Source of the DNA: Mycoplasmatota bacterium
GTDB lineage: Bacteria; Bacillota_I; Bacilli_A; MAG-NZ
Assembly (NCBI GenBank): GCA_018394315.1
Contig: CP074575.1
Span: 682,001-746,000 of the forward strand
Direction of reading: 5' to 3'
Length of the DNA stretch: 64,000 nucleotides
Shown here: in pieces, positions 21,160 through 44,919 of the stretch
Numbering within the stretch: position 1 is the first letter of the stretch
Layout of the letters: every line of letters starts with the position of its first letter
Made by a program: the position numbers and the translations under genes
Notes under the pieces: model-generated
Told to the model about the DNA's origin: nothing
Database searches by the model: none
The model's input: the letters and a program-made list of their open reading frames with translations, nothing else

Positions 21160-21516
21160 GTGCCTATGTCAAAAGAAATTGTATTAAAGATCCAAGAGTT
21201 ATACGAAAATTGGATAAAAGATGATATGACTTCACTGGATAGTGCTAATATTTTTGCTAACTTACTTGAGTATGTAGAAGAGACAAAAAAGGATATTTGT
21301 GGAAAGTGTATTCCATGTCGAGATGGAATACCACAAATCGAAAATATATTTAGAAATTTTGAGATTGAAAAAGTTACAAAAAATGACTTGGTTAAGTTGG
21401 AGAATTATGTTGAAAATTTAAGAAGTTCTAAATGTAGTGTAGGTATCGATTTCGGAAAGAACATGGAAGTAGTACTTAGAAATAACTTTAATGATTTTTA
21501 TAGGAAAGTTAGATAG
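21160..21516 (+). CDS. Stand-alone NuoF/HydB-type [4Fe-4S]-binding domain protein
   Basis: CGKCIPCRDG...SKCSVG, the CxxCxxC-x~37-C cluster motif of NuoF, without a flavin domain. Confidence 0.75.
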   Translation: MPMSKEIVLKIQELYENWIKDDMTSLDSANIFANLLEYVEETKKDICGKCIPCRDGIPQIENIFRNFEIEKVTKNDLVKLENYVENLRSSKCSVGIDFGKNMEVVLRNNFNDFYRKVR

Positions 21517-21527
21517 GGGGAAATAGT

Positions 21528-23297
21528 ATGGCTAAGATTATTTTAAACGGAAAATCAATAAGCGCAAAAAATGGGCAAACTATTCTTTCTGTTGCTCGTG
21601 AAAATGGTGTAGAAATTCCAACTTTATGCTTTTTAGAAGAAATTAATGAAATTGGATTTTGTAGAATTTGTGTAGTTGAAGTTGAAGGTGAGAAGGATCT
21701 AGTTTCAGCATGTAATACCGCAATTAAAAGTGGTATGGTAGTTAATACGGATAGTCAAAGAGTACTTGATTCTAGACAAGCTACTCTTACATTATTAGCT
21801 AAAAAACATAGATTCAACTGTTGGGTGTGTCCTAGAGGAGATGGAACTTGTGACTTCTACAATTTATTAAAAGATTATTGTGTAGATAGTTTCAAATTCG
21901 ACCCTGCTGAGGGTAGACATGATTGTGTTGTTCCTGGTACAGGAATTTATCAAGATCAAACAAAATGTATTTTATGTAAACGTTGTGTTGCTGTTTGTAA
22001 CAATGTTGTTACTGCTAAGGTTTATAAATTTAGAGATGAAGAAGGAACAGATCCTATAGTATCTCCAACACCTAGATTACCATTTGATGAGGCAGGATGT
22101 ATTTTCTGTGGACAATGTACAAAAGTTTGTCCAACGGGAACATTAGCGGAAACAGATCACATCGAAAGAGTGGAGCAAGCAATTAGAAATCCTAAGAAAC
22201 ATGTAATTGTACAAATGGCTCCAGCAATAAGAGCTGCAATCGGTGAACCTTTTGGGTATCCAATTGGAACTCCAGTTAGAGAAGTTGAAGGGAAAATGTA
22301 CCGTGCTTTAAAAATTCTAGGTTTTGATGAAGTAACTGATACGAATTTCTCTGCGGATTTAACTATTATGGAAGAAGGTACTGAATTTATCGATAGAGTT
22401 AAGAATAGTGGAACATTACCATTATTCACATCATGCTCTCCAGGATGGGTTCGTTATATTGAAATGTATCGTCCAGAGTATCTAGCGAACCTTTCAAGTG
22501 CTAAATCTCCTCATATGATGCACGGTGCAATTTTGAAGAATTTCTATGCTCCAAAGAGTAAAGATATCGCTCCAGAAGATGTATATGTTGTATCAATTAT
22601 GCCTTGTACTGCTAAAAAATATGAAATATCTCGTCCAGAAATGGAACAAGATGGAATAAGAGATGTAGATGCAGTATTAACAACTAGAGAGTTAGCAAGA
22701 ATGATTAAAAAACATGGTATTGACTTTGTAAACTTAGAAGATTACAAACCAGAAAATAAGTTTGCTGAATATACAGGTGCAGGAACAATATTTGGAGCTT
22801 CTGGTGGAGTTATGGAAGCTGCAGTAAGAACTGTTTATGAAATATTAGAAGGTGAATCATTAGGTAGTATTGATTTAGAAATGATGCGCGGTGTAGAAGA
22901 AGATATTAAAGAGGCGACATTAAAATTACCTAAGACTGGTTTAGAAGTGAATGTAGCAATCGTTCATGGTGGTAAAGGAATTAAGAAAATGTTCGAAATC
23001 CTTGATAAAGGTGAAAAAGAATATCATTTCATTGAGTTTATGGGATGCCCTGGTGGATGCGTAAACGGTGGTGGACAACCAATAGTGAAAGAAGAAATTA
23101 TGGATCAATTCAAGGTTGCAGAATTAAGAGCTAGTGCATTATATGATTCCGATCAAAAAGACACTGAATTTAGAAGATCACACCTTAATAAAGCGGTTAA
23201 ATGGACATACGATGAGTGGTTAGAAAAACCAGGTAGCCACGTAGCACATAAGTATTTACACACTAATTATTCACAAAAGAAATTTAGAAAGGAATAG
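21528..23297 (+). CDS. hydA: [FeFe]-hydrogenase large subunit (group A), copy 1
   Basis: N-terminal 2Fe-2S, His-ligated 4Fe-4S and 2x4Fe-4S; H-cluster motifs TSCSPGW, MPCTAKKYE, EFMGCPGGCVNGGGQP. Confidence 0.95.
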   Translation: MAKIILNGKSISAKNGQTILSVARENGVEIPTLCFLEEINEIGFCRICVVEVEGEKDLVSACNTAIKSGMVVNTDSQRVLDSRQATLTLLAKKHRFNCWVCPRGDGTCDFYNLLKDYCVDSFKFDPAEGRHDCVVPGTGIYQDQTKCILCKRCVAVCNNVVTAKVYKFRDEEGTDPIVSPTPRLPFDEAGCIFCGQCTKVCPTGTLAETDHIERVEQAIRNPKKHVIVQMAPAIRAAIGEPFGYPIGTPVREVEGKMYRALKILGFDEVTDTNFSADLTIMEEGTEFIDRVKNSGTLPLFTSCSPGWVRYIEMYRPEYLANLSSAKSPHMMHGAILKNFYAPKSKDIAPEDVYVVSIMPCTAKKYEISRPEMEQDGIRDVDAVLTTRELARMIKKHGIDFVNLEDYKPENKFAEYTGAGTIFGASGGVMEAAVRTVYEILEGESLGSIDLEMMRGVEEDIKEATLKLPKTGLEVNVAIVHGGKGIKKMFEILDKGEKEYHFIEFMGCPGGCVNGGGQPIVKEEIMDQFKVAELRASALYDSDQKDTEFRRSHLNKAVKWTYDEWLEKPGSHVAHKYLHTNYSQKKFRKE

Positions 23298-23303
23298 ATT
23301 TGA

Positions 23304-24515
23304 ATGGGAAAAGTTATTAATATCAAAGAGTCTCGCGACTTCCTGAATCCAGATAAAGTCTACATTCCACTTGCTAGTGTAAATTCTAAATATTATGATT
23401 TACTTGTCTATGAGGGTGATGAAGTTAAACTTGGTGAAAAGGTTGCTGAGAGATTTGGGGAAGTTAAAACACCGATTTTCTCTTCTGTAAGTGGAGAAGT
23501 TATTGGTGTCGAAGAATTAGAATATCATAGTGGTATCGTAGTTGACCATTTGGTTATTAAAAACGATAAAAAAGACACTATACATGAAGATATTAAGCCT
23601 ATTGAAGGTGAATTAACAGCTAGAAATATTCAAAGAAAAATTGAAGAATTAGGAATAAAAGGTCTAGCACAAAGGGGTCTTTATACTAGATTTGAGTTTT
23701 CTAAAACTGTAGATCACTTATTTGTAAACGCAGTTTATCAAAATGAACCTTTTGTTAAGGTGGACCCAGAACTACTAAGTAGTTATCAAAATGAAATCGT
23801 TGAGGGAGTTAAACTTCTTGCTAAAGCTTCGTTAGCTGAGGTTTCAGTATTAGTTAATAAGAACGAAGATGATAGTATTTATGTAAATGAAGGAATTAAG
23901 ACGATTAAAGTTAATCCTAAGAGAATTGGAGTATGGCATATTTGCGCTATTAGTAAGGCTGTAGGAAAAGAACTATCACATGACTTGTTAGATGATAGAA
24001 TTATGTTTGTTTCTTCAGACACTGCAAGAGCTGTTTATAATGCTGTAACTAAAGGAATGCCTGTTGTTGAAACAGATGTTCTTGTTGTAGGGGATGCTCT
24101 AAATTCTAATTCCCACTATAATATTAAGATAGGAACTCATGTTGAAGAGTTAGTACAGGATTTAGGAGTTATTGAAGATACTGAAGAAGTTTCAGTATAT
24201 ATCGGAAGCATTTTAAGTGGTAGAACAATGCAATCTACTAACTTTGCATGTACTGAATTCATTAATTTCATCGGAGTTGATACTCCTATGAAAGGTGAAC
24301 CACAAGTATGTACAAAGTGTGGACGCTGTAACGATATTTGTCCAGTAGACATTTTGCCTCAAAATGTTATGGATGCAGAACTTAGAATGTTAGATAATCG
24401 TATATTTGAGTTAGATGTTAATAAATGTATTGAGTGTGGACTTTGTTCTTATGTATGTCCTTCGGAAATTAATGTTTTAGAATGGGTTAGACGTGCTAAG
24501 CGTCGAATCAAGTAG
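23304..24515 (+). CDS. rnfC: RnfC-like subunit with degenerate NADH/FMN site
   Basis: RnfC N-terminal barrel (V.EGDEVKLGE...SSVSGEV); CTKCGRCNDICP and CIECGLCSYVCPSEI; GxGGAGFP and NGAECEP motifs absent. Confidence 0.85.
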   Translation: MGKVINIKESRDFLNPDKVYIPLASVNSKYYDLLVYEGDEVKLGEKVAERFGEVKTPIFSSVSGEVIGVEELEYHSGIVVDHLVIKNDKKDTIHEDIKPIEGELTARNIQRKIEELGIKGLAQRGLYTRFEFSKTVDHLFVNAVYQNEPFVKVDPELLSSYQNEIVEGVKLLAKASLAEVSVLVNKNEDDSIYVNEGIKTIKVNPKRIGVWHICAISKAVGKELSHDLLDDRIMFVSSDTARAVYNAVTKGMPVVETDVLVVGDALNSNSHYNIKIGTHVEELVQDLGVIEDTEEVSVYIGSILSGRTMQSTNFACTEFINFIGVDTPMKGEPQVCTKCGRCNDICPVDILPQNVMDAELRMLDNRIFELDVNKCIECGLCSYVCPSEINVLEWVRRAKRRIK

Positions 24516-24525
24516 GGGGTAAAGT

Positions 24526-25584
24526 ATGAAATATTTAAAGCTAAAATCTCCTTTTAAACTAGGGACATTAAAATATAAGCACATCACTCAATCAATTCAA
24601 TTATCATTATTAATAGTTTTGATAGCTAGTTTCTTTATTTATAATAGAGCTGGATATCAAGGTGTTAACATTTTACTTAATGCAATTATAGCAATTGTAG
24701 TTTCATTTATAGTTGAAGTCTTATTTGCAGTTACAGCGAAGAAGTTTACAACTATTAAAGATTTATATTTTAAAGAAAATTTATTAATGATTCCATTACT
24801 TACAGTATTATTACTACCATTACATACGCCGATATTTGTAATTATTATCGCAACTATTGTTGGAGTATGGATTGGTAAATTAGTATTTGGTGGATATGGA
24901 TTCAGTATATTTAATCCAGCAATTGTTGGTGTGTTATTCGCTAATTTATCGTTTAAGTCGCAATTAGCTATGCCAGATGGAATAATTTATCCATTACAAA
25001 GATTAAAAGATGCGACAGCTAATTTAAGTATTGCTGGTTTAAATCCACATCACTTATTATTAGTTGATGGTGGATACGGAATGGCAATCGGGACTGCAAG
25101 TGTAGGATTATTAATATTACTGATTGTTGTATTATCTATAATAAGAGCAATTGACTGGCGTATAAGTTTAACTTATTTAGTTACTGTGTTTGGTATTACA
25201 TTTGTGATGGGTAAATTCTTTTTTGCTCAAGAGCAAATTCTTACAGGTTTAGTTATCTTTGGTGCTTTATTCTTAGTTACTGATGATGTCACTTCACCTA
25301 CAAGTAGAGAAACTAAAATTGTATATGCAGTAATTGTTGGTTTATTAACAGTAATGATTAGAACAATTGGTTCTAATTTAGAGGGAGTATTATTTGCTGT
25401 ATTACTAGGTAACTTAATCACTCCGTTCTTAAATAGAACAGTTAAGAGAAGTAATTTGATATCTTTAGCAAAAGCTTTAGTATTTGCAGTTATTGTAATT
25501 GTAGCTGCAGGTGCTGCATTAAATGCAATATTAGAAGGTAGAATTCCTTCTGAATTAACAACTATCATGGGGGTGATGATTTAA
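24526..25584 (+). CDS. rnfD: RnfD-like membrane subunit
   Basis: KLVFGGYGFSIFNPA; FLVTDDVTSP; FAVLLGN. Confidence 0.9.
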   Translation: MKYLKLKSPFKLGTLKYKHITQSIQLSLLIVLIASFFIYNRAGYQGVNILLNAIIAIVVSFIVEVLFAVTAKKFTTIKDLYFKENLLMIPLLTVLLLPLHTPIFVIIIATIVGVWIGKLVFGGYGFSIFNPAIVGVLFANLSFKSQLAMPDGIIYPLQRLKDATANLSIAGLNPHHLLLVDGGYGMAIGTASVGLLILLIVVLSIIRAIDWRISLTYLVTVFGITFVMGKFFFAQEQILTGLVIFGALFLVTDDVTSPTSRETKIVYAVIVGLLTVMIRTIGSNLEGVLFAVLLGNLITPFLNRTVKRSNLISLAKALVFAVIVIVAAGAALNAILEGRIPSELTTIMGVMI

Positions 25585-27317
25585 TGAAACACGTTAAAAT
25601 TATATCGTCTCTATTAGTAGTGGTTGTAATTTGTATGGTTGCAATATTCCTTATTGAGGGACCTACTTCGAAGATAATCAACGAAAGACTAATGCAAGAA
25701 GCAAATGCAGCATTATTTGAGATTTATCCAGATGCAACGGGATTTGAAGAAGTCACTGAAGAGTATCCTACTGATGAAGCGATACTTAATATATTTACTG
25801 TGAAGGAAGGCGAAACTCAAGTAGGTGTGGTTTATAAAGGAGAAGTAGCTGGTTATAATCCTGGTGTTCAGTTCTTACTTGGTGTAACTACTGATGATGA
25901 AGTGGCAGGATTTAAAATTCTAGCAAACTCAGAAACAGCAGGTATCGGTAAAGACTTAATTGAGCATCCAGATTTTGCTGAACAATTCGCTGGTGTACCA
26001 AGAGAAACAATGCAAGATGTAGGTGTTGATTTAGTAGCTGGTTCTACGGCTAATGTTACATTAGGTGGAGTTAATAAAGGAGTTAAGCATGTATTAACTT
26101 ATCATGGTGTTAACTTTAAAGGTGAAGTCGCAGTCGTACCTGAAACTGAAGAAGAAAAAATCGAAAGATTAAAATCTGAATTCTTCCCAGGATCTACATT
26201 TACAGATGTAACTGGAGACTATCCTGAAGGAGATATTATCTTAGAAATCTTAGAAGCATCAAATGGTGGGTATATATTTACTACCTTGTTCAACGGGTAT
26301 TCATTAGATTCTGTATATATGATCGGTATTGGTACTGATGGTGTTGTAACGGGTTATAGTACATTATCTACTAAGGAAACTGCTGGAATTGGTGAAGCAT
26401 TAGTTATGAATGAAGAATTCCAAGCACAATTTGCTGGAATTAGCGTAGAACAGTTAAAAGAAACTGGTGTAGATTCAGTAGCAGGAACAAGTGCTCCATT
26501 TACATTAGAAGGTTTAAATGAGAGTTTAAGTGAATTAGCTAGTTACTTTAATAAAGAAGTATTAGGTGTTCAAGATACAGTTGCTCCGGAGTTGGCTATA
26601 CTTCCTAAACAAACTGAGTTTGAGGTTGGTTCAACTGCTCCAGTTTGGGATAGTTATGTAACTGCAACAGATAATGAAGATGGTGTAGTAGTAACTCACG
26701 ATGCTGAAGCTGTTGTTGATATGAATGTTGCTGGTACTTACACTGTTATGTACACTGCTACAGATACTGCAGGAAACTATACAACTCTAACTATTGAGTT
26801 TGTTATCAGTGAAGGTGCAGTAGAAATTGTATTAGTTCCTGTATCAGATGAAGTAGAAGCTATCTTAGCTACTATGGATCCTGAGGCAAGTGAATATTCA
26901 GACGAATTAATCTCTGATGAGATTATTAAAGGTATTTATACAAGTAGAGATGCGGATAAAAACATTACTAGTGTATTCTACGATGTTGAGACAGAAAATG
27001 GTGGATATGCATCTAATAACAAAATTATGGTTCAATTTGATCCATCTATAAATTCAATTACTAAAGTGAATGTATATGTTTCAAAAGCTACTTATAAAAC
27101 TGATTCATATGCTCCAAACTCTGGAAAAGGTGAAGACTTAGACTCACCATTAATTGCTGCAGTTTGGGAAGGTGTTGCTCAAGTAGGTCAAGTTACTGAA
27201 GCAGATGTAGACTCAGTATCAGGTACTACAGCTGTAGAAACATTCCCATCATTAATTGAAGTGATTGATTACGTTATTAATTATCAAGTTACTAATCAAA
27301 TAGGAGGTGCTGAATAA
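25584..27317 (+). CDS. rnfG: RnfG-like protein with three FMN-binding-type domains and an Ig/HYR-like spacer
   Basis: ETAGIG twice; VDLVAGST, VDSVAGTS, VDSVSGTT; DTVAP...ATDNEDG...GTYTVMYTATDTAGN Ig-like domain. Confidence 0.85.
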   Translation: MKHVKIISSLLVVVVICMVAIFLIEGPTSKIINERLMQEANAALFEIYPDATGFEEVTEEYPTDEAILNIFTVKEGETQVGVVYKGEVAGYNPGVQFLLGVTTDDEVAGFKILANSETAGIGKDLIEHPDFAEQFAGVPRETMQDVGVDLVAGSTANVTLGGVNKGVKHVLTYHGVNFKGEVAVVPETEEEKIERLKSEFFPGSTFTDVTGDYPEGDIILEILEASNGGYIFTTLFNGYSLDSVYMIGIGTDGVVTGYSTLSTKETAGIGEALVMNEEFQAQFAGISVEQLKETGVDSVAGTSAPFTLEGLNESLSELASYFNKEVLGVQDTVAPELAILPKQTEFEVGSTAPVWDSYVTATDNEDGVVVTHDAEAVVDMNVAGTYTVMYTATDTAGNYTTLTIEFVISEGAVEIVLVPVSDEVEAILATMDPEASEYSDELISDEIIKGIYTSRDADKNITSVFYDVETENGGYASNNKIMVQFDPSINSITKVNVYVSKATYKTDSYAPNSGKGEDLDSPLIAAVWEGVAQVGQVTEADVDSVSGTTAVETFPSLIEVIDYVINYQVTNQIGGAE

Positions 27318-27940
27318 TGAAGAATAAGAAAAGTTTTGGTGAAATATTTACAACTGGTATCTTAAAACAAAACCCAACATTTGTTCAGTTCCTTGGAATG
27401 TGTCCAACATTAGCGGTTACTAGTAAAGTAGAAAATGCGCTTGGTATGGGTGCTGGTGTAATTTTTGTATTAGTAATGAGTAACTTTATAATTTCATTAA
27501 TTAGAAACTTTGTTCCTGATGAAGTACGTATTCCAATTTATATCGTTGTTATCGCTTCATTAGTAACAATATTAGAAATGAGTATGAATGCTTTTATGCC
27601 AGATTTAGCAGCTGCGTTAGGAACTTTCTTAAAGTTAATCGTAGTTAACTGTCTTATCTTAGGTAGAGCAGAGGCATTCGCTGCAAAGAATAGTCCGGTT
27701 AAATCTATTGCTGATGGATTAGGTATGGGGATAGGATTTACATTAGGTATTTCATTTATCGCTGTATTCCGTGAAGTATTAGGTTCTGGTACGATTCTAG
27801 GATTTGAAGTAATTCCAGCTGATTTCCAGTTATCAATATTAGGTGGACCAGCTGGTGCGTTCTTAGTGTTCGGTATTTTAGTAGCTCAAGTTACTAAACT
27901 AAGAATGATAAAAGCAAAGAAAGCAGAGGTGAATGCGTAA
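27317..27940 (+). CDS. rnfE: Rnf subunit E
   Basis: LGMCPTLAVT; LIVVNCLILGRAEAFA. Confidence 0.95.
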   Translation: MKNKKSFGEIFTTGILKQNPTFVQFLGMCPTLAVTSKVENALGMGAGVIFVLVMSNFIISLIRNFVPDEVRIPIYIVVIASLVTILEMSMNAFMPDLAAALGTFLKLIVVNCLILGRAEAFAAKNSPVKSIADGLGMGIGFTLGISFIAVFREVLGSGTILGFEVIPADFQLSILGGPAGAFLVFGILVAQVTKLRMIKAKKAEVNA

Positions 27941-28517
27941 TATGGAATATATCGCTTTAGCTTTTAGTGCTATATTTGTATCTAATGTAGTATTATCGCA
28001 GTTTTATGGTTTATGTCCTTTCTTAGGAGTATCAACAAAGAAAAGTTCTGCGTTAAGTATGGGTATGGCTGTTACATTTGTAATCACATTAAGTTCAATG
28101 ATTGCTTGGGCAATAGATACATATATCTTATTGCCAAATGATATTAGATATTTGAATACAATCGTGTTTATCTTAGTAATTGCTGCGTTTGTACAATTGG
28201 TTGAGATGGTTATTAAAAAATTCTCACCTCCTATATATCAAGCATTAGGTGTTTACTTACCTTTAATCACAACGAACTGTGCGGTATTAGGGGTTGCGAT
28301 TGATGCTACTCAAAAGTATAATTATTCATTCGGTAGTACTGTTGTTTATGCTCTTGCAATATCACTTGGATATGCATTAATTATCTTCTTATTCTCTGCA
28401 ATTCGAGAAGAGATGGACGCATATCAAATACCCGAAAACTATAAAGGAATTTCTATAGCTTTAATAAGTGCATTCATTATGGCTATGGCATTCATGGGAT
28501 TTGGAGGGATGGTATAA
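27933..28517 (+). CDS. rnfA: Rnf subunit A
   Basis: GLCPFLGVS; YLPLITTNCAVLG. Confidence 0.95.
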   Translation: MRNMEYIALAFSAIFVSNVVLSQFYGLCPFLGVSTKKSSALSMGMAVTFVITLSSMIAWAIDTYILLPNDIRYLNTIVFILVIAAFVQLVEMVIKKFSPPIYQALGVYLPLITTNCAVLGVAIDATQKYNYSFGSTVVYALAISLGYALIIFLFSAIREEMDAYQIPENYKGISIALISAFIMAMAFMGFGGMV

Positions 28518-28878: not shown

Positions 28879-28896
28879 TTGTAACATTTGGTACGA
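28879..28896. promoter_or_regulatory. Operator copy upstream of the rhodanese-selenoprotein genes
   Basis: TTGTAAC-ATTT-GGTACGA, 2 mismatches to the palindrome. Confidence 0.5.
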
Positions 28897-29026: not shown

Positions 29027-29899
29027 ATGAAAAAATTAGCGTTATTGTTAACAGTTGCTTTAGTATTTTCTTTAGCAGCATGTACTAAAGAAGTAGAGAT
29101 TCCTGAAGAAGTAACTATGGAAAATATTGATCAATTTTTAGAAAGAGACAATGTACAATTAGTTGACCTAAGAAACTACTCAGACAAAATGAGTGCAGGT
29201 TACATTGATGGATTTGAAATTATTTCATTCTTCGAATATTTAGATGGAAATGCGGTTGCTAGAAACGATGGTTGGAACTGGCAAGCAGATAATCTTTTAG
29301 ACCAAGATTTATTAGAAAATTTCTTTGATAAAGAAGCTGATGCTATCTTCATGATGTGTGCTGGTGGAACTAGAGCTGGTTTCGTTAAAGCTGCTTTAGA
29401 AGAAATCGGATACACAAATGCATTTAATATTGGTGGATTCGGTGACTACAAAGGTGAAAACAAAGTTATGGGTGATGGCGTTTATGGTAAATTACCTGCA
29501 GAAGTAACTATGGCTAATGTTGACCAAGTATTAGAAGCTGATGGTGTTCAATTAGTTGACTTAAGAGACTGGGATGACAAAATGAAATCAGGTTACATCG
29601 CTGGATTTGAATTTATTCCTTTCTTCGATTATTTAGAAGTACAAAATGTATTAGTTAGAAATGATGGATGGAATTGGCAAGATGCTAATGTATTAGATTC
29701 TGATATCTTAATGAACTTCTTTGATCAAAATGCAAAAGCTATTTATTTAATGTGTGGTAGTGGAACTAGAGCTGGATTTGTTAAATCTGCACTAGAATCA
29801 TTAGGATATACAAATGTTCATAATGTTGGTGGAATCGCAGATTACGCTGGTGAAAACAAAGTTTTAGGTGACTCAGTATACGTTTGGCCTGCAGCTTAG
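29027..29899 (+). CDS. Tandem rhodanese-domain lipoprotein (sulfurtransferase)
   Basis: Lipobox LAAC; two repeats with VQLVDLR and active-site loops CAGGTRA and CGSGTRA. Confidence 0.9.
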   Translation: MKKLALLLTVALVFSLAACTKEVEIPEEVTMENIDQFLERDNVQLVDLRNYSDKMSAGYIDGFEIISFFEYLDGNAVARNDGWNWQADNLLDQDLLENFFDKEADAIFMMCAGGTRAGFVKAALEEIGYTNAFNIGGFGDYKGENKVMGDGVYGKLPAEVTMANVDQVLEADGVQLVDLRDWDDKMKSGYIAGFEFIPFFDYLEVQNVLVRNDGWNWQDANVLDSDILMNFFDQNAKAIYLMCGSGTRAGFVKSALESLGYTNVHNVGGIADYAGENKVLGDSVYVWPAA

Positions 29900-30577: not shown

Positions 30578-30682
30578 AGATCAAGATCCCCATTATTATG
30601 AGGGTCTTTTCTTTTACTTGAAAATATTTGGTCATATATGTTGGAATCGTGGTAATAATATAGTATAATTTTATGGATACTT

Positions 30683-30779
30683 GGAAGCACTTACGTAACT
30701 GGTGTACGTACTGGTCTTCAACACCAAGTTGTGGGTGTAAAAACTCATGGGTGGGTTCGATTCCCATGTGCTTCCGCCA
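30683..30779 (+). tRNA. selC: tRNA-Sec (TCA)
   Basis: GGAAGCAC/GTGCTTCC 8-bp acceptor stem, extended D-stem, TCA anticodon at 30718-30720, long variable arm, GCCA; TTGGAA-17-TATAAT promoter at 30641-30669. Confidence 0.95.
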
Positions 30780-36857: not shown

Positions 36858-38219
36858 TTACTTAAAGCACTTTCCAGCAGCACATTCATGTTCATTAATG
36901 TGTGCTAAAAATTCGTCTTTAAAGCTATTCATAGCTGTATGCATAGTCATTCCTACTGCTTGCCCTAAACCACATAATGATGCTGTTCTAAGATGCTCTG
37001 CTAGTTCAATTAATTTATCTAAATCTTTTAAGGAAGCGCTTCCTTCTTTGATTTTTTCTAGTAACTGTGCAGCTCTTTTTGTACCTACTCTACAAGGCGT
37101 ACATCTACCGCAAGATTCAATGTTTAATAAGTCTACATTGAAATGAGTAAAGTCTACCATACAAGTTTTATCATCTAAGATTACTACTCCACCTGAACCA
37201 ACCATAACTTGACGTTCTTTGAATTCAGGAAAAGCAACTGGTAAATCGATATCTTCACTACCTAACATAGTGACATTTGGAGACCCAGTTACGAATGCTT
37301 TGAATTTTCTGTTATCACGCATTCCACCACCAAGTTCAATTAATTCTCTAATAGTTATTCCAAGAGGAACTTCAACAGTTTTTGGACTATTCAAATGACC
37401 AGTTAATGTGAATACTTTTGATCCTTCACTACCTGGAATACCTGTTGATTTATACCAATCAGCACCGTTTAGAATAATTTGCGGTACAACTGATAATGTT
37501 TCAACATTGTTTATTAATGTTGGTTTGCTAAATAAACCTTTAACAGCTGGGAATGGAGGTTTACTTTTTGAGTTACCTCTATTACCTTCTATAGAGTTAA
37601 TAATCGCTGATTCCTCACCACAAACGTAAGCTCCAGCTCCTCTAAACACTTCTACTTCAAAGTCGAAGTCTGTTCCTAATATTTTTTTACCTAATAAACC
37701 TTTTTCTTTAGCATCTTCAATAGCTTTATTTAATACTTCTAAACACACTGGATATTCATATCTTAAATATATATATCCTTTTGAAGCACCAATAGCGTAT
37801 CCCGCTAATGCCATACCTTCAAGTACTGAATGTGGATCCTGACGCATTAATACGCCATCTATAGTTGCTGCAGATTCACCTTCATCAGCATTACATATAA
37901 TATACTTTTGACCTTTTTCTTTTGGAATGAATCCCCATTTTAATCCAGTTGGGAATCCCCCACCAGAACGACCCTTTAATCCTGAGTCTTTTACTACTTC
38001 AGTAACCTCTTCAGGTTTCATTTCAGTGATAGCTTTGTTTAGTGCAAAATATCCATCTCTAGCGATATATTCATCAATTGAATCCTTGTCAATGACATAC
38101 GAATTTTTTAAAACTATGCGAACTTCTTTTTCTTTGTTTGTACGATAATCTTTATCAAACTTATTTCCAACACGTTTTAACGTATCGTCTTTTATTTTCT
38201 TCAGTAATTTGATATCCAT
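36858..38219 (-). CDS. hydB: NuoF-like NADH/FMN-binding hydrogenase beta subunit (short form)
   Basis: GLKGRSGGGFPTGLKW; CNADEGE; GAGAYVCGEE; ESCGRCTPCRVG; ends at CAAGKC with no ferredoxin tail. Confidence 0.92.
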   Translation of the reverse strand: MDIKLLKKIKDDTLKRVGNKFDKDYRTNKEKEVRIVLKNSYVIDKDSIDEYIARDGYFALNKAITEMKPEEVTEVVKDSGLKGRSGGGFPTGLKWGFIPKEKGQKYIICNADEGESAATIDGVLMRQDPHSVLEGMALAGYAIGASKGYIYLRYEYPVCLEVLNKAIEDAKEKGLLGKKILGTDFDFEVEVFRGAGAYVCGEESAIINSIEGNRGNSKSKPPFPAVKGLFSKPTLINNVETLSVVPQIILNGADWYKSTGIPGSEGSKVFTLTGHLNSPKTVEVPLGITIRELIELGGGMRDNRKFKAFVTGSPNVTMLGSEDIDLPVAFPEFKERQVMVGSGGVVILDDKTCMVDFTHFNVDLLNIESCGRCTPCRVGTKRAAQLLEKIKEGSASLKDLDKLIELAEHLRTASLCGLGQAVGMTMHTAMNSFKDEFLAHINEHECAAGKCFK

Positions 38220-38221
38220 AA

Positions 38222-38692
38222 TTAAATCCCTTTTAATAATTCAGTAACTTTATCTATAGTTACTTTATTATGAGTTTTATGATTGATTATCACGTTAGGC
38301 GCTAGTTCGCACTTACCTAAACATCTACCTATTACAACTGAGAACTCCTTGTTCCTAGATGTAGAGTTAGGCTCGCATTTCGTTATTTCGCATACTTTTT
38401 TAAGAATGTCATTTGCTTCTTGTACATAGCACGTAGTCCCTACACAAACTTCTATGATGTTTTTACCTTGTATATCACTTGTAAAGTAATCATAGAAAGT
38501 AACAATTCCACTGATTTTTGATATTGAAGCGTCATGGTGTTTACCAATTACTCTTTGAATTTCTACTGGCACTCCACCGAATACTTTCTGAGCAAGGTGA
38601 ATTGATTTAAGAAGACCAGCTTGATCTTTTGCGTTTTCAGCAATGCTTTTCTCGAATTCTGCCAATTGCTCGGGAAGAAATTTATTCTTCAT
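38222..38692 (-). CDS. hydC: NuoE-like [2Fe-2S] hydrogenase gamma subunit
   Basis: VCVGTTC...RCLGKCELAP. Confidence 0.92.
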   Translation of the reverse strand: MKNKFLPEQLAEFEKSIAENAKDQAGLLKSIHLAQKVFGGVPVEIQRVIGKHHDASISKISGIVTFYDYFTSDIQGKNIIEVCVGTTCYVQEANDILKKVCEITKCEPNSTSRNKEFSVVIGRCLGKCELAPNVIINHKTHNKVTIDKVTELLKGI

Positions 38693-38791: not shown

Positions 38792-38809
38792 TCGTAACAA
38801 ATGTTACAA
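38792..38809. promoter_or_regulatory. Operator copy upstream of hydCBA
   Basis: TCGTAAC-AAAT-GTTACAA, 1 mismatch to the palindrome. Confidence 0.6.
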
Positions 38810-38952
38810 ATATTATATCAAGTTTTATTTTTCATACTGTACAAAAAATGTGTTAAATACAGGTAACACTCTATTGTTGGCTATAATCTATTGTTTTGGT
38901 ACATTACTACTGGATAATTGTTGTGGTAAAATGTATCTATGGAGGTGGGAAA

Positions 38953-39513
38953 ATGAGAGTTGCTTATTATTTATACGACGGATACTCACAAATAGAAATA
39001 TCTATTCCTGAGTTTTTATTTAGGAAAGAGGAAACAATGACTTTATCAAGTAATCAAGATGTGGTTGTTTGTCAAGGGGGTAAAAGATCACTTATTGACT
39101 ATTCGGTAAGCGAAGTAAATCCAGAAGATATCGATGTTCTTATTATTCCTGGTGGGAAAGCAAACATTGAGGAAGACATACTTAAGTTGATAAAGGATTG
39201 TGAGAAACAAGGAATAGTCATCGGAGCTATTTGTGCTGGTGTTGATTATTTACTCCATGCAGGGGTTCTAAATGATAGAAAATATACTGGTTTCTTTGAT
39301 CCTGATAAAACTTATGATTTTTTACCGAAAGATGGGATATTAACTTATAAAATGTACGAAAGTGACAAGAATATAATTACCGCAAGACCAGAAGCATATT
39401 TGGAATTCGCTTTAGAATTATATCATTTAGCTGGATTCAGGATAGATTCTACGGATGGTTTTGTGGAATGGTTTAAAAGTCCGCTTTGTTGGACTAAGGA
39501 AAAAATCGATTAA
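38953..39513 (+). CDS. DJ-1/PfpI family protein
   Basis: DVLIIPGG; GAICAG nucleophile; NIITA; GGAGG RBS before ATG 38953. Confidence 0.88.
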   Translation: MRVAYYLYDGYSQIEISIPEFLFRKEETMTLSSNQDVVVCQGGKRSLIDYSVSEVNPEDIDVLIIPGGKANIEEDILKLIKDCEKQGIVIGAICAGVDYLLHAGVLNDRKYTGFFDPDKTYDFLPKDGILTYKMYESDKNIITARPEAYLEFALELYHLAGFRIDSTDGFVEWFKSPLCWTKEKID

Positions 39514-39644
39514 CATGATATGTTAATTGATTTTTTTTGTTCTAAATAGATAATTAATATCCTGGAAGTAAATTACCAATTAATATTTTATCCATATATG
39601 ATATAATATTTAAGCATTAAATGTTATGAATGGAAGTAAACTAT

Positions 39645-40937
39645 ATGAAAAAAATTATACTATTAATGATTGTGATTTTAGTAGGGTGCACAAAGAGTAT
39701 GGAACCTATAAAAATCGAGGAAGCTACAAATGAAACTACTATAGATTGTGAGAAATTTCCTTCTGCAACAGCGTGTATAGACAAAGGGGAAACAACTAAA
39801 CCAATCATTATTCCAGAGGTGATTGAGCAGACTGATCCTGATCCAATTCCTGATCCGGAACCGGAAACAGAACCAGTGCCAGAACCTGAGCCATACGATA
39901 TTTGTGATGACTACCCTAATCACGCGGAGTGTTTGGAGCCATTAACAAGTTTTCAAGTTTACACTCACGAGAGTGGAAATGATTATTTTGATTCGTTTAT
40001 AAGTATGAAATTATATATAGCATCTGATCAAAGAGGTTTTGATTATGTATCAATATATAGGAGACTAGGAGAAAAGTATCATCAAATAAGTGATAAGTAC
40101 CATAATTATGATGGTGTAGTTAATATAAAGACTATTAATGATAATCCAAGCAATACACATTATCTGTCTGAGGAGTTATATAATTTAATAAAATTTTCTA
40201 TTGCTAATTATGATTTAACAGAAGGTTATTTTGATATTTCTATTGGACCTGCTTCAAGTATTTGGCATTATTATAGAGAAAGATGTCTTGGCTATGATAA
40301 TCTTGTGCCATACTTTTGTAGCGTACCGAAAGTGGATGAGTTAAATAATGTAAGAAATTACATTGATATAGATAAGATTGTTCTAAATGATGATGAAATG
40401 TCAATAACAATGGAAGAAGGAATGAGTCTTGATTTAGGTGGAGTAGCTAAAGGATATTTTGTTGAGATGTTAGCTGATGAGTTTATGAAAAACGGGCTTA
40501 GAGCCTTCTTGATAAATGCAGGTGGTAATATTAAGACATACGGGAATAGACCACAGGATGAATTTTATACAATCGGTGTTCAAGATCCAACAAAACCAAG
40601 AGGGGAAGCTAAGTTACCATTTTCTTTGAATATTCCTGGAGGTTATTCTGTTGTTTCATCTGGAGATCAAATAAGATATTATGAAGTGGATGGTGAAATA
40701 TATCATCATATCGTTAATCCATATAATTTATTTCCGGATAGACATTCAAGACAAGTTACGATTATTACAAATGATTCACGAGCTGCTGACATTTTATCGA
40801 CAAGTGTATATTTAATGACTATAGAAGAAGGTATAGAATTCGTAGATAATTTAGATAATGTTGAAGCTATTTGGTATGGACTTGATGATGAAGTTTATTT
40901 TTCTAAAAATGCACTTGATTTTATTGTTTTTGATTAG
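39645..40937 (+). CDS. apbE: FAD:protein FMN transferase (flavinyl transferase) lipoprotein
   Basis: Lipobox LVGC; FDISIG; LDLGGVAKGY; INAGGN; SSGD..RY; YHHIVNP; ADILST. Confidence 0.93.
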   Translation: MKKIILLMIVILVGCTKSMEPIKIEEATNETTIDCEKFPSATACIDKGETTKPIIIPEVIEQTDPDPIPDPEPETEPVPEPEPYDICDDYPNHAECLEPLTSFQVYTHESGNDYFDSFISMKLYIASDQRGFDYVSIYRRLGEKYHQISDKYHNYDGVVNIKTINDNPSNTHYLSEELYNLIKFSIANYDLTEGYFDISIGPASSIWHYYRERCLGYDNLVPYFCSVPKVDELNNVRNYIDIDKIVLNDDEMSITMEEGMSLDLGGVAKGYFVEMLADEFMKNGLRAFLINAGGNIKTYGNRPQDEFYTIGVQDPTKPRGEAKLPFSLNIPGGYSVVSSGDQIRYYEVDGEIYHHIVNPYNLFPDRHSRQVTIITNDSRAADILSTSVYLMTIEEGIEFVDNLDNVEAIWYGLDDEVYFSKNALDFIVFD

Positions 40938-41010: not shown

Positions 41011-44000
41011 ATGAAAAAAATATATATATTTCTAAGTTTATTTACTGTTGTTTTTGTTTTATCCGCATGTAAGGAAAAAATTATTGATATTCCTATTGAA
41101 ATGCAACAGGAAAACGAAGAGAATGATCCAGTTGATAAAGAAGACACTACAGAAACTCCAGATGATAAGACAGAAGATCCTTGTGATCCAGTTATTATCG
41201 AAGTGGAAGTACCTGTACCTGTTGAAATTGAAAGACAAAGAAAATATAAACCAGGAACTTACTTTAATTCAAGTGAGAATTCAGTTGGTACCAATGGATA
41301 TAACTTTGTTGTTGTTGTAGTTGATGGATACGGTGATATTTCGGGTGTTCTTATAGATGAAACTTATTCAAGCAAAAGGATTTATGCAGACTCTGATGGA
41401 AAACTTTATGTTTATGTCCTTGGGAATGGAACAACTGTGCCAAACTCTTATCGTTTAATTGATAAGGATTTAGATTATAACTCTTATCCAACTGGCATGG
41501 ACGCATTAACAACTGATGACTATATTGTGGGAATTCATTCTGATGAGATTAATGAACTATCTGAAATTCAAGTGAATGAAACTAAAGCATACTTAGGAAA
41601 TCAACTAGATATGGCAGGGAAATACACATATCAAAAACAAGTTGAGATGATTTCAGAAAAGATAATTACCGATAATACAACTTATGGATTCAACTTATAC
41701 GAATCAGGTAACAGTATAAAAACAGATTCCATAGCAGGAGTATCAATCCATATATCAGAGTATCTAGAACTTGTTCAAGAAATTCTAGATAATGATGCTA
41801 GAATATCTGAAAGTGATTATTTATTATCAAAAGATGATCCTATATATGGGATTTATGAACCGGGATCGTATGTTTCTTATTCAGATAAACTATTAGTTGA
41901 CGACTCATTAAACTTCGATTTTTCATTTGTTGTCGTAGATGATTTTGGAGTTATTAGTGGTGTATACTTGGACTCAACGAGTTCTGACACTATCACTGAA
42001 GGTAGTAATTCTTCTAAAGGAATTATGAAAGAAGCTTATGGCCTAGGTATTATGGCTGAGACAAGTCCTTGGTATGCTCAGGCTAATGCATTAAGTCAAC
42101 AAATTATAAATAACCAAGGAATCAAAGGAATTGAATTATTAAGAATTGATCCGCTAAATGGTTTTGATGATAGTTCAATTGATATATTAGAGACTGAGGG
42201 GCGTGTACCTTTATATACTGATTCAGTAGCAAGTGTTTCAGTTCGTGTAGATGGTATGCTTCAAGCAGTTGATAAAACTTTAAATTCCATAAAATATTCT
42301 AATTATGTGGATGGTACTTACTACAAGTCAAATAGTGGTGAAAATCATATCTTTAATTTACTGACTATTAAAGACGGAGAAATTAAGTCGATTTATATAG
42401 ATAAAGTGAAGAGTGTTTATCAAGCTCAGCACTCGAAATCTAACAATGAGTACAAGGTATTTAAATTTATACGTCTATTTAAGGTGAATAATGTTACATT
42501 ATCCGCTTCTATTAGAGTCTATCAAGACGGAGATGATTATTACTCGTTAGATGATTTTCACTATATTGGTAGTCTTGAATTAGATGACCGTGAAAAGATA
42601 AATAGAGATGAACTTATGAATTTAGATACTGTAGAGAGTGATACTTTAGTAGCAGTCCCTGGTTATTATACTGCTAGAATTGCTAAGGATAGTGACTATG
42701 TGAATTTAAATGGTTGGTCAAATTATATTAATTTAATTACTAGTAAATTTCTTGAAAGTAATGGGACAGATAGTCTACTGGTAGATGAACAGGGATTAAC
42801 TTTATATGATGATATGGCAGTCTTTAATACTACTGATATAGTGAATTTAGTAAACAAAACACTATATTCAGCAAGAAACATAGAGAACAACCTCATTAAT
42901 GAAGTGGGTAGTACACTTTCAGATAAGTTAGCTGATGGAGAGTACTTTGTAAATCTCTTACCGGAATCTACCGGATATATAAAGTTTGGATATATGACTG
43001 TTCTTGATGGGGATATTATTTCGCTATACTTTGATCATACGATTGATAATGAAACTTATTCTACAACATTATTCTCTAGCAACAAATTAACTTCTAATAA
43101 TGGATTATCGATAAATGAACAAATAGTTTTATTAATGAATACAATAATTGATAATCAAAGTACTTTAGTTAACACGATTATAGATTCCTATAACTATACC
43201 AGTGAAGAAACATTAACATCAATTAACAATTTAGAAATTTTTCAAAATGATGATTTCAAGTCACCTATTGATGATTATATTGATATATTCGAGATGTTAG
43301 TGAGGGAAGCAGCAGATGAGAAATTAGTTCAGGATGCGAATTTAATTAATGAAGAATTACTTAATAATGAAAGATACTTTAATAATTCATACTTTATTAT
43401 AGATACTACTGAAGTGGAATATTTACCTTTATCAATTTCTAATTTAGAAACCAGCAACTATTACACATTAAAATGGAGTTCAGAAAACACAAAAATTGTC
43501 GATCTCGATATTAATGATAATGGATATGATGTAGTAATTGATGACGACATCGAAGAAGATGAATTTATTACACTAAAATTACAGGTATTTTTGGAAAATA
43601 CTTATAAAATAGTGGATACATTTTACTACGAGGTTCCACTGCTTACTAGAAGAGATGAAGGGATTAGAATACTGAATAATCCAGAGTTTGATTTACCAGC
43701 TGCATTTTTACTTGAAAACCACACGTTCGAATTTCCAACTTCGGATAAAGTTCAAGTCAAATGGATTTCATCTGACGCAAGTGTTTTTGAGGACGGAGTG
43801 ACTAGAAACATTAATTCTAATAAGGAATTGATACTAACTGCTTTCGTAGATTTAAATGAGGATGGACTATTAGATAACGGTGAACCGACTAAACAGTTTA
43901 ACGTTATGGTTTTAACAGAAGAAAATGCTATTGAGAAGGTTCATAGTGCTATTGGCTTGTCTAATATTTATAAATATTTGGATAAGGATTTTAGATTAAG

Positions 44001-44919
44001 TAAATATTCTCCTGTATGGGGAATTGATTATACTTGGGTAACGTATAACGATTATGTAACCTTGACTGAATATGAGGATTATGTTGATGTATCTATAATA
44101 AGAAAAGACTATGATTCAAATGTATCCTTTATTGCAGACTTAAATTTTGGAAGTTCTGTAAATGATTATAAGTTTAATTACAAAATATTAGCAGGTAACA
44201 AAAATGCTTATGCTGAATATGTTGAAGAAGATGCATCTGCTTTAGAGTTTTGTAACTTAAAATCATATGATGTAAGTGATCCAAAGATAGTTCCATTAGA
44301 TCTAACAAAACTTACTAAAGATGATTTAATTGGTGTAATTTCTGATGGAGAGTGCAAGTCTATCGTTGTTGATAAATTGAATGAATATAATGTCGGAATT
44401 GCTAGAGGTAGTAAGATTAAATTTGAAGTAAATGACTTTGGTATGTTTGTAGATAATAATGGAATGATTCTTTATGAAGATTATGAAAAGGATGCTTACT
44501 TCACATTGACTGCTACTATTGAATATACTGGTGGTTTAGTAAAGAGTACTTTAGTTAAAGAGTGGGACTTGGTTATCTTGAGTTCAAAGACACAAGAGGA
44601 GAATGCTATAGAGGACGAAAGTGAATTAGTTGATTACTTGATTGATATTTCTCATAATCAAGGAAGAGATGTTGAAATAGATTTACCAGTTACTGGTTAC
44701 ATTAACTCATCTACAATAACATGGACTCTAAATGAAAGCATTTCTACTATTCCAGATACAATGTATGATGTAAGTAAATTAGCTGACGGAGAGGTAATTA
44801 TATTAACTAATTCAGGATTAGATTCATTGGCGGAAAATCAAAGACTCGTTTTGACAGCTACATCAACTTATGGAAATTATTCGACATCTAAAGTTATCAT
44901 AATTAAACTTAAAGATTAA
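41011..44919 (+). CDS. Giant lipoprotein with about four FMN-binding-like modules and C-terminal Ig-like domains
   Basis: Lipobox LSAC; module starts YKPGTY, YEPGSY, YVDGTY, LADGEY; TDSIAGVS and TDSVASVS motifs; W.SS...LTA Ig-like repeats; follows apbE. Confidence 0.75.
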   Translation: MKKIYIFLSLFTVVFVLSACKEKIIDIPIEMQQENEENDPVDKEDTTETPDDKTEDPCDPVIIEVEVPVPVEIERQRKYKPGTYFNSSENSVGTNGYNFVVVVVDGYGDISGVLIDETYSSKRIYADSDGKLYVYVLGNGTTVPNSYRLIDKDLDYNSYPTGMDALTTDDYIVGIHSDEINELSEIQVNETKAYLGNQLDMAGKYTYQKQVEMISEKIITDNTTYGFNLYESGNSIKTDSIAGVSIHISEYLELVQEILDNDARISESDYLLSKDDPIYGIYEPGSYVSYSDKLLVDDSLNFDFSFVVVDDFGVISGVYLDSTSSDTITEGSNSSKGIMKEAYGLGIMAETSPWYAQANALSQQIINNQGIKGIELLRIDPLNGFDDSSIDILETEGRVPLYTDSVASVSVRVDGMLQAVDKTLNSIKYSNYVDGTYYKSNSGENHIFNLLTIKDGEIKSIYIDKVKSVYQAQHSKSNNEYKVFKFIRLFKVNNVTLSASIRVYQDGDDYYSLDDFHYIGSLELDDREKINRDELMNLDTVESDTLVAVPGYYTARIAKDSDYVNLNGWSNYINLITSKFLESNGTDSLLVDEQGLTLYDDMAVFNTTDIVNLVNKTLYSARNIENNLINEVGSTLSDKLADGEYFVNLLPESTGYIKFGYMTVLDGDIISLYFDHTIDNETYSTTLFSSNKLTSNNGLSINEQIVLLMNTIIDNQSTLVNTIIDSYNYTSEETLTSINNLEIFQNDDFKSPIDDYIDIFEMLVREAADEKLVQDANLINEELLNNERYFNNSYFIIDTTEVEYLPLSISNLETSNYYTLKWSSENTKIVDLDINDNGYDVVIDDDIEEDEFITLKLQVFLENTYKIVDTFYYEVPLLTRRDEGIRILNNPEFDLPAAFLLENHTFEFPTSDKVQVKWISSDASVFEDGVTRNINSNKELILTAFVDLNEDGLLDNGEPTKQFNVMVLTEENAIEKVHSAIGLSNIYKYLDKDFRLSKYSPVWGIDYTWVTYNDYVTLTEYEDYVDVSIIRKDYDSNVSFIADLNFGSSVNDYKFNYKILAGNKNAYAEYVEEDASALEFCNLKSYDVSDPKIVPLDLTKLTKDDLIGVISDGECKSIVVDKLNEYNVGIARGSKIKFEVNDFGMFVDNNGMILYEDYEKDAYFTLTATIEYTGGLVKSTLVKEWDLVILSSKTQEENAIEDESELVDYLIDISHNQGRDVEIDLPVTGYINSSTITWTLNESISTIPDTMYDVSKLADGEVIILTNSGLDSLAENQRLVLTATSTYGNYSTSKVIIIKLKD

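Follow-up and report, generated by a model that had tools for sequence, protein, structure and literature searches.

A second, specialised Rnf complex with a hydrogenase-type module and a rhodanese–selenoprotein lipoprotein pair in an Izemoplasmatales-like bacterium

Rnf is regarded as a ferredoxin:NAD+ machine, and the locus described here raises the question of what such a complex might be coupled to when its operon begins with a hydrogenase-type module and is followed by genes for surface lipoproteins. The locus spans positions 21160–44919 of a 64,000-nucleotide stretch of DNA (hereafter the window; positions 682,001 to 746,000 of contig CP074575.1, assembly GCA_018394315.1) from a Mycoplasmatota bacterium; coordinates refer to the window, and genes lie on the forward strand unless stated otherwise. 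The closest homologues come from genome records assigned to Izemoplasmatales or Izimaplasma, and the host is an Izemoplasmatales-like bacterium, a wall-less anaerobe. An initial annotation had read the locus as a hydrogenase-coupled, remodelled Rnf wired to an extracytoplasmic selenoprotein and rhodanese. Its gene list and gene order agreed at every placement with the open reading frame list and Pfam scan, and its interpretation was partly supported: the comparisons below support the gene set as a real, conserved system, and several claims about its components had to be given up. We tentatively favour the reading that the locus encodes a specialised Rnf exporting electrons to a surface flavo-seleno/thiol persulfide reductase.

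The specialised Rnf complex and its FeS module

The initial annotation had left open whether the genome also carries a canonical rnf. It does: the 2.17-Mb genome encodes two Rnf sets, of which the one in the window (marked here with ∗) is specialised and the other canonical. All six subunits of the studied operon (C, D, G, E, A and B) were matched by Pfam, used here as a domain scan (NCBIfam cut-offs quoted below are curated per-family bit scores). They are RnfC∗ (23304–24515), RnfD∗ (24526–25584), the membrane-anchored, 577-residue RnfG∗ (25584–27317), RnfE (27317–27940; PF02508, 228.6 bits), RnfA (27933–28517; PF02508, 196.6 bits) and a 118-residue RnfB that consists of the N-terminal Fe-S domain only (PF04060; 28468–28824, with a probable start at ATG 28519). 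The canonical rnfCDGEAB lies ∼95 kb upstream (G000:C1:610827-615239; L005 4827-9239), directly after a serine hydroxymethyltransferase gene. Its RnfC matches Complex1_51K with 118.5 bits and carries an SLBB domain, its RnfD scores 309.6 bits and its RnfG is 173 residues long.

RnfC∗ reached only 24.7 bits for Complex1_51K, against a cut-off of 31.2, and showed no SLBB match to Pfam. Alignment on 7zc6_C indicated that the NADH/FMN sites of the paralog are replaced (GLGGGGFP by GLAQRGLY, ECEPYLT by QNEPFVK and GGPMMG by GSILSG) and that both CxxCxxCxxxCP motifs are retained. The GGxGFP, ECEPY and GGPMMG motifs were likewise missing, and both 4Fe-4S motifs kept, in 13/13 full-length RnfC copies linked to HydA, whereas the two canonical RnfC proteins compared (the paralog in this genome and that of locus L072) kept NADH/FMN and 4Fe-4S motifs alike. 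Loss of the NADH/FMN site is therefore strictly tied to the presence of an upstream NuoFc118-like protein and HydA (13/13 versus 0/2 canonical copies).

The initial annotation had taken both cytoplasmic termini of the complex to be eroded. This view stands for the RnfC end and fails for the RnfB end, because RnfB of the canonical set is equally short (102 residues, PF04060 alone); the short RnfB is a trait of the lineage and not an erosion specific to this operon. For an Rnf that presumably functions with ferredoxin and NAD+, a 102-residue RnfB with one Fe-S domain is unusually small. The [S/T]GA[S/T] flavinylation site of RnfD is also lost: RnfD∗ reads IIYPL where the paralog has VAGATAL and 7zc6_D has VTTATPL, and none of the 13 orthologs has the site, a deletion having left only TPL in eleven others.

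The outer part of the complex is expanded, as had been proposed. RnfG∗ (FMN_bind, 53.6 bits) contains three FMN-binding domains and an Ig-like domain, with predicted flavinylation motifs DLVAGST, DSVAGTS and DSVSGTT at residues 149, 297 and 543. Its orthologs carry one to seven motifs of this type. These motifs support a multi-flavinylated RnfG∗.

Divergence of this kind could also reflect decay, in which case Rnf∗ and HydA1 would be a redundant paralogous set under relaxed selection and the motif losses would be erosion. Four subunits do score below their NCBIfam cut-offs (RnfC∗ 190.2 versus 245.95 for TIGR01945, RnfG∗ 71.2 versus 102, RnfB 66.5 versus 68.7, and RnfD∗), the catalytic domain of HydA1 is decaying in many lineages and the operon is broken in one genome, G004. 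We nevertheless regard decay as highly improbable: at least 13 genomes carry intact reading frames, with all FeS cysteines invariant at an identity of only 36–50%, RnfE and RnfA are 67–80% identical among relatives, and the motif losses are the same in every lineage, which argues for an old, stable state. In a sample at the level of the order, the cluster, with an RnfC∗ (high-scoring or related), was present in 8/8 genomes and a canonical-scoring RnfC in 7/8, none being found in G007, a genome that is 78% complete.

Two genes precede rnfC∗. The first (21160–21516) encodes NuoFc118, a 118-residue protein corresponding to the NuoF C-terminal 4Fe-4S domain alone (PF10589, 44.9 bits), in which C47, C50, C53 and C92 are invariant in 12/12 sequences. 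The second (21528–23297) encodes HydA1, a predicted [FeFe]-hydrogenase of the trimeric-enzyme type (Pfam Fer2_4, NADH-G_4Fe-4S_3, Fer4, Fe_hyd_lg_C and Fe_hyd_SSU) that scores 495.6 bits for TIGR02512 against a cut-off of 405.95; the top name that NCBIfam gives it is 'NADH-dependent [FeFe] hydrogenase, group A6'. The FeS domain of HydA1 is 58–67% identical to the copy in this genome in all 11 orthologs, with 85/220 alignment columns invariant, and sequence comparison thus points to an FeS wire as the conserved feature of the HydA1 module.

The initial annotation had suggested modelling HydA, RnfC and the product of the gene at 21160 together. We predicted a complex of three chains, RnfC∗, residues 1–220 of HydA1 and NuoFc118, the last being the scored partner. 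NuoFc118 was placed on the FeS domain of HydA1 with a score of 0.76, a mark attained by 116/157 solved complexes and by 2/215 mismatched pairs; the best of three controls scored 0.00. Model runs shared at least 85% of contacts, and NuoFc118 had a pLDDT of at least 76. In the confident part of the model the interface comprises HydA1 residues 42–93 and 170–176 and NuoFc118 residues 43–59 and 82–96. The model supports docking of the cysteine region of NuoFc118 on the N-terminal FeS domain of HydA1.

The lipoprotein pair, its flavins and selenocysteine

Two lipoprotein genes follow rnfB. The first (29027–29899) encodes a rhodanese with a lipobox and two PF00581 domains, each with a six-residue CxxGxR loop (CAGGTR and CGSGTR). 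The second (29912–30578) encodes a predicted selenoprotein lipoprotein, here called SelLipo, which has a lipobox, an in-frame TGA at codon 92 (30185–30187) within the motif SCTUR, and DSYAGSS at residues 194–200. We sampled its family at 76 genome loci, in Bacillota, Spirochaetota and Actinomycetota; the first Cys of the motif was part of the search pattern and the rest was not. C-T-[C/U]-R was found in 76/76 loci, with Cys in 74 and TGA in two, and further selenocysteine (Sec) forms beside that set occur in this window and in locus L018. The in-frame TGA of SelLipo aligns with the Cys of its homologues.

Bacterial SECIS elements are hairpins that lie shortly past the UGA and carry a G in the apical loop. 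A SECIS-like hairpin (30203–30226; stem AUAAGCA/UGCUUAU, loop GGU) starts 16 nucleotides past the UGA of SelLipo, and the three related Sec forms (this window, L017/L022 and L018) all have a 7-bp stem closed by a GGU loop. The Sec forms encode NYKQ, NYEQ or NFKQ at this place and the Cys forms NYWQ; the codons for NYKQ, NYEQ and NFKQ themselves build the hairpin stem, and coding constraint is inseparable from the SECIS-like shape. Folding energy of the 48 nucleotides past the Sec or Cys codon did not separate Sec from Cys forms, so that only the shape of the hairpin is informative. The alignment of the TGA with Cys supports SelLipo as a bacterial selenoprotein. Database entries for its two closest homologues (P0004 and P0005) show W at the TGA position, evidently because gene callers read TGA as Trp (code 4) on these Mollicutes-like contigs, which hides the selenoprotein. 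An independent TGA form is present outside Izemoplasmatales, in locus L070 (Lachnospirales), with a weak SelB-like match nearby and no clear hairpin after the TGA.

The structural model of SelLipo (pLDDT 78.4, pTM 0.71) matched RnfG (7zc6_G, Z 9.1, rmsd 3.1 Å over 115 residues; 8ahx_G, Z 8.0), TM0246 (Z 6.8) and NqrC (Z 6.0). This likeness was found only by an all-against-all structural aligner; a Foldseek search of the model against the PDB gave no match at E ≤ 0.001. The nearest named clusters to a Cys homologue in a protein atlas are FMN-binding, and the C-terminal motif of the family, D-x-x-[A/S/T]-G-[A/S]-[S/T], takes the canonical form TGAT or SGAT in many members (AGSS here). A search of 5.8 billion clusters found only 15 relatives of SelLipo, one of them fused to a rhodanese. 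NCBIfam held no family model for it, with matches only to its signal peptide. The selenoprotein-family table of a 2026 review has no FMN, Rnf or lipoprotein entry, and we saw no description of this selenoprotein family in the open-access full-text literature. Fold and motif together support SelLipo as a new family of RnfG/NqrC fold that is predicted to be flavinylated.

Two further genes of the locus bear on flavins. The genome has two ApbE flavin transferases, one of them in this locus (39630–40937), and the gene next to it (41011–44919) encodes a 1302-residue lipoprotein with two N-terminal domains of FMN_bind fold followed by an Ig-like region. The large lipoprotein had no Pfam match even at E 10. 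A search of 1.84 billion representatives with its N-terminal 650 residues found 40 relatives, and PF04205 was found in 11/14 distant relatives scanned. Residues 74–430 were modelled as the two FMN_bind-fold domains (pLDDT 84.2, pTM 0.84); domain 1 resembles 3o6u (Z 11.2), 2kzx (Z 10.6) and CbFMN4 domain 1 (Z 5.0), and domain 2 resembles SaFMN3 domain 2 (Z 7.9). The motif DSIAGVS at residue 239 fits the local flavinylation pattern and resembles the C-terminal DDIAGVS of RnfG∗ orthologs; the second site, of consensus DxIAGxT, is degenerate here (DSVASVS). An alignment of family profiles (hhalign) gave 69% between SelLipo and the 1302-residue protein, partly via signal peptides. The FMN_bind folds of this 'multi-FMN lipoprotein', as it had been called, are thus borne out by the model, and the flavin count itself goes beyond what the fold supports.

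The Sec genes follow SelLipo: selC (tRNA-Sec, 30683–30779), selD (30804–31829, with its own TGA at Sec codon 17), selA (31830–33218) and selB (33211–35055), the three protein genes being matched by Pfam. They had been read as the system's own Sec machinery, a claim that does not hold. All of selA, selB, selC and selD are present, and this SelA is the only one in the genome, which also has two GrdA genes with in-frame TGA (G000:C1:1617850-1618293 and 227667-228110); this operon thus supplies the cell with Sec in general, GrdA included. There were no sel genes at the equivalent place in L017/L022, and 74/76 members of the SelLipo family use Cys. The sel operon happens to lie beside its client SelLipo. 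Both TGA-containing GrdA genes adjoin GrdB and so represent two selenoprotein sets of glycine/betaine-reductase type.

Gene neighbourhood and a shared operator

Synteny was examined within 10 kb on either side of SelLipo in the 76 loci. A rhodanese was found in this range in 71/76, mostly adjacent and on the same strand, and the two are fused in L068 (445 residues), L096 and P0005. A strict CxxGxR[AS] pattern was tried as a test for rhodaneses and set aside; it recovered 35/68 loci and missed other loop forms, and its count is not used as evidence. ApbE lies near SelLipo in 17/76 loci. NuoFc and HydA stand beside the pair in 14/76, with RnfC∗ and downstream rnf genes where the contig permits. 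These 14 loci span several orders among Izemoplasmatales-like genomes, and the pair is directly beside or divergent from Rnf∗; in most of them the nuoFc-hydA-rnf operon diverges from rhodanese-SelLipo-ApbE. The arrangement differs in this genome and in L017/L022, with the pair after rnfB and then hydA2BC and apbE with the large lipoprotein. The synteny search thus found the rhodanese, the CxU/CxC lipoprotein and ApbE co-conserved with Rnf∗, as the initial annotation had expected. In L072, an Eubacteriales locus, the pair and ApbE are surrounded by rnf genes, and the RnfC of this cluster is canonical.

The palindrome that the initial annotation had placed before three transcription units also proved to be real. 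Its only perfect genomic copy, TGTAACttatGTTACA (TGTAAC-N4-GTTACA), lies upstream of the first operon (20941–20956), with a weaker copy (two mismatches) at 20812–20827 upstream of it; a weak copy with two mismatches precedes the rhodanese gene (28880–28895) and one with a single mismatch, CGTAACaaatGTTACA, lies in the divergent region between hydC and the DJ-1–apbE genes (38793–38808). Across the genome there are one copy without mismatches, nine with one and 152 with two. In L022 all three corresponding promoter regions contain copies (565; 8899, one mismatch; 14446). These sites support common control of the rnf∗, rhodanese-SelLipo and hydCBA/apbE units. A small gene for a helix-turn-helix protein of XRE type (20414–20632), read from the sequence, is a candidate regulator upstream of the operon. 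Rex was considered as the regulator and rejected, since the genome has no PF06971 match. Promoter-like sites were no more common than in shuffled sequence (95 versus 98.2), and because of this we treat the good promoter-like sites at 21101 and 28955 as no more than hints.

Between the sel genes and apbE lies a hydrogenase operon on the reverse strand: hydA2 (35071–36846), the NuoF-like hydB (453 residues; Complex1_51K, SLBB and NADH_4Fe-4S; 36858–38219) and hydC (38222–38692), each identified by Pfam. It adjoins the system also in L017, L018 and L119, and appears to encode an NADH-type hydrogenase sharing its operator with rnf∗. HydB is without the extra ferredoxin-like domains of bifurcating HydB, and the HydABC trimer may be non-bifurcating. 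A DJ-1/PfpI gene (38896–39513, likely start 38953; Pfam), unmentioned in the initial annotation, separates the hydC promoter region from apbE; none was found at the equivalent place in any relative examined. In eight loci (L024, L025, L026, L031, L040, L041, L048 and L064) a conserved block lies downstream of ApbE, comprising a PF07456 membrane protein, DegV, a 2TM protein, PadR, MarR, DegV and a GltD/NfnB-like oxidoreductase (Fer4_20 and Pyr_redox_2).

The proposed electron path and its alternatives

In the reading that we favour, the HydA1–NuoFc118–RnfC∗ chain would serve as electron input, with H2 as a likely donor in this genome, and ferredoxin could enter as an alternative or additional input via RnfB and RnfA/E. 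Electrons would arrive at the FMNs of RnfG∗ and pass to the covalent FMN of SelLipo, which would reduce the protein's own Cys-Sec selenylsulfide; the resulting selenol/thiol would then free sulfide from a persulfide borne by the rhodanese, whose sulfur could come from polysulfide, S0 or thiosulfate. The module would thus reduce sulfane sulfur at the cell surface without molybdenum. Its sulfur chemistry, its ion coupling and the direction in which electrons travel are all inferred. A more specific proposal, that an [FeFe]-hydrogenase:Rnf supercomplex drives a Mo-free extracellular sulfur/selenium reductase with SelLipo as the catalytic subunit and its covalent FMN reducing Cys-x-Sec, which would in turn take sulfane sulfur from the rhodanese, is doubtful.

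Several observations weigh against the favoured reading, and the first of them concern the hydrogenase. H-cluster motifs have the forms TSCCPxW (L1), MPCxxKxxE (L2) and ExMxCxxGCxxGGGxP (L3). HydA1 of this genome has intact L2 and L3 motifs, and its L1 is TSCSPGW, with Ser at the expected second Cys; the ordinary paralog HydA2 has the same L1, a variant reported in trimeric hydrogenases of Melainabacteria (PMC3787301). Among 12 HydA1 sequences, L1 is TSCCP in two and TSCSPGW in two (including this genome), the first Cys is replaced in seven, and both Cys are lost in that of locus L039, which is also without the L2 and L3 cysteines (three H-cluster Cys lost). Overall, the motifs are degenerate in 8/12 orthologs and canonical or near-canonical in 4/12, and the H-domain is 28–64% identical with 23/369 columns invariant among the 12 sequences. 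Since the catalytic domain of HydA1 is not conserved, H2 cannot be the conserved donor. The genome encodes the HydF maturase, and turnover of H2 by HydA1 is plausible here. The term 'hydrogenase-coupled' thus fails as the name of a conserved property. The docking score of 0.76 may itself stem from likeness to solved NuoF–NuoG or HydB–HydA complexes, in which case it would not be independent evidence.

Further points concern the remainder of the path. The route from RnfC∗ to RnfG∗ is uncertain because RnfD∗ is without the covalent-FMN site. PF04205 (FMN_bind) had no match in SelLipo at E ≤ 10, and a profile comparison of the SelLipo family with RnfG∗ by hhalign, in which the flavinylation motifs fell opposite each other, had an insignificant probability of 0.5%. 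In the rhodaneses of loci from other orders, CxxGxR is replaced by A-D-G-C-I-R, with a shifted Cys.

The state of the hydrogenase bears equally on a rival explanation, in which Rnf∗ is an ion-translocating ferredoxin:H+ oxidoreductase, the Rnf counterpart of Ech/Mbh, and the surface lipoproteins are a side branch or unrelated. Electrons would run from ferredoxin through RnfB, RnfA/E, RnfG, RnfD, RnfC∗ and NuoFc118 to HydA1 and H2. Retention of all six Rnf subunits is in keeping with such a path, as are the position of HydA where NAD+ would bind (13/13 without the NADH site, and consistent with the docking model), the near-canonical H-cluster motifs and HydF in this genome, and the operator common with hydA2BC; at low H2 pressure, moreover, the energetics of ferredoxin:H+ resemble those of ferredoxin:NAD+. 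However, the H-domain has degenerated in most orthologs while the FeS domain and the neighbouring genes are conserved, RnfD∗ is without the covalent-FMN site of the canonical return path, and the extra FMN domains of RnfG∗ and the rhodanese, SelLipo and ApbE neighbours in 14 loci would be left unexplained. We therefore judge this alternative unlikely.

A second rival follows from the distribution of the lipoprotein pair, which also counts against the favoured reading. There is no Rnf near the pair in 62/76 SelLipo loci. In 19–20 loci the partners are instead a thioredoxin-like protein, a 400-residue membrane protein and an FMN-binding lipoprotein of 140–170 residues; the membrane protein has an N-terminal CxxC domain and membrane cysteines, with only weak DsbB and thioredoxin matches in Pfam, and the set looks like a route exporting reducing power. 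The full set of five genes (small FMN lipoprotein, rhodanese, CxC lipoprotein, thioredoxin-like protein and CxxC membrane protein) recurs in L027, L030, L032, L035, L036, L043, L044, L053, L057 and others. Conversely, there is no SelLipo in L119, where Rnf∗ is accompanied by a one-domain rhodanese, hydA2BC and the large lipoprotein, and genome G004 has an intact SelLipo beside an RnfD∗ cut to 219 residues (L117 11786-12445). The G004 rhodanese is cut to 44 residues (L018 11006-11137), ∼70 kb from the rnfD break; the specialised rnfG/E/A/B are missing from that genome and no second rnfE/A was found in it. The G004 breaks reflect either a genomic rearrangement that also deleted genes or an error in the assembly.

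Two separate functions may, on this view, stand side by side, with the rhodanese and SelLipo as a stand-alone surface thiol/sulfur module that uses any reductant exporter, for acquisition of reduced sulfur/selenium or for envelope thiol care, and that lies near Rnf∗ on account of a shared need for ApbE and shared regulation. The lineages are largely fermenters, and the proposal by the authors of an Izemoplasma study that thiosulfate-derived sulfide feeds cysteine synthesis (PMC8397711) would suit such a role. Against it, the pair lies beside or divergent from Rnf∗, with ApbE, in 14 loci of several orders; the unrelated Eubacteriales locus also embeds it in rnf; one palindrome precedes both units in two genomes; and the surplus FMN domains of RnfG∗ have no other obvious client. 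On balance we find this explanation improbable. Of the earlier proposal that a rhodanese/selenoprotein module is tied to Rnf, co-conservation remains and specificity for Rnf does not, given the loci with the thioredoxin set.

The electron export that we favour has partial precedents. In the Sud/Psr system of Wolinella, an extracytoplasmic rhodanese-type sulfur carrier (Sud) feeds a reductase, and Ech/Mbh combine a hydrogenase with a membrane complex that translocates ions. Unlike Sud/Psr, this locus has no molybdopterin reductase, and unlike Ech/Mbh its hydrogenase is of [FeFe] type and its membrane part is Rnf, not complex-I-like. Known Rnf complexes, which are Na+/H+-translocating ferredoxin:NAD+ oxidoreductases (7zc6, 9eri, 8ahx), share with it the gene order rnfCDGEAB, the conserved RnfE and RnfA, the RnfC N-terminal barrel with two 4Fe-4S clusters and the membrane-anchored, FMN-binding RnfG; they differ in having the RnfC NADH/FMN motifs and the RnfD flavinylation site, and in being without a three-FMN-domain RnfG with an Ig-like domain and without NuoFc118 and HydA1 before RnfC. 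As in NuoF–NuoG of complex I and in HydABC, a NuoF C-terminal cluster domain (NuoFc118, a mini-protein with the NuoF 'N3' cluster) is modelled together with a NuoG-like N-terminus (that of HydA1), but the flavin/NADH domain is absent from NuoFc118 and degenerate in RnfC∗, and the module would sit on a membrane Rnf and not on HydB/HydC.

Multi-flavinylated RnfG has been described before, with the proposal that it diverts electrons to acceptors outside the cytosol (Meheust et al. 2021, PMC8238504). The clusters of that study likewise have more than one FMN domain, an ApbE and large unannotated surface proteins nearby; its main text does not contain the words hydrogenase, rhodanese or selenocysteine, and the present locus is set apart from the clusters in that main text by an RnfC without an NAD site, by the HydA/NuoFc module and by an FMN-fold lipoprotein with CxC/CxU. 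Two-subunit Nqr/Rnf-like complexes, for which outward one-way electron flow was proposed, also have an NqrB/RnfD-like subunit without a flavinylation site (PMC8238504, PMC11334425), but bind NAD through PF00175, whereas Rnf∗ keeps six subunits and an FeS/hydrogenase input. The hybrid DsbD/DUF3570/thioredoxin-like/DUF4266 (CXC) system (PMC8238504) similarly combines extracytoplasmic covalent flavin with a CXC thiol motif; SelLipo differs in joining a flavin-type domain and CxC/CxU in one protein of RnfG fold, with a rhodanese as partner. We found no description of a HydA–Rnf complex in the open-access full-text literature, and no paper there that brings a rhodanese together with ApbE and FMN-binding domains.

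A stable lineage of Rnf complexes with a hydrogenase-type FeS module in place of the NAD+ site would widen the range of couplings of which Rnf is capable, and the favoured path would, if true, be the first Rnf-based link to H2. The SelLipo family appears to join a covalent flavin and a CxC/CxU pair, two extracytoplasmic redox currencies, in one small domain. Growth of an Izemoplasma isolate, the one cultured Izemoplasma, was promoted by 100 mM thiosulfate, with its known sulfur genes unresponsive (PMC8397711); the effect is suggestive, and we take it as context and not as evidence for the locus. If the more specific supercomplex proposal is correct, it could explain such thiosulfate-stimulated growth, and wall-less fermenters would gain a respiratory sink fed by H2 or ferredoxin. 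If the rhodanese and SelLipo do reduce sulfane sulfur, they offer a possible cause of the thiosulfate effect and would represent a new route to sulfide that is missed by surveys based on psr, phs and dsr markers.

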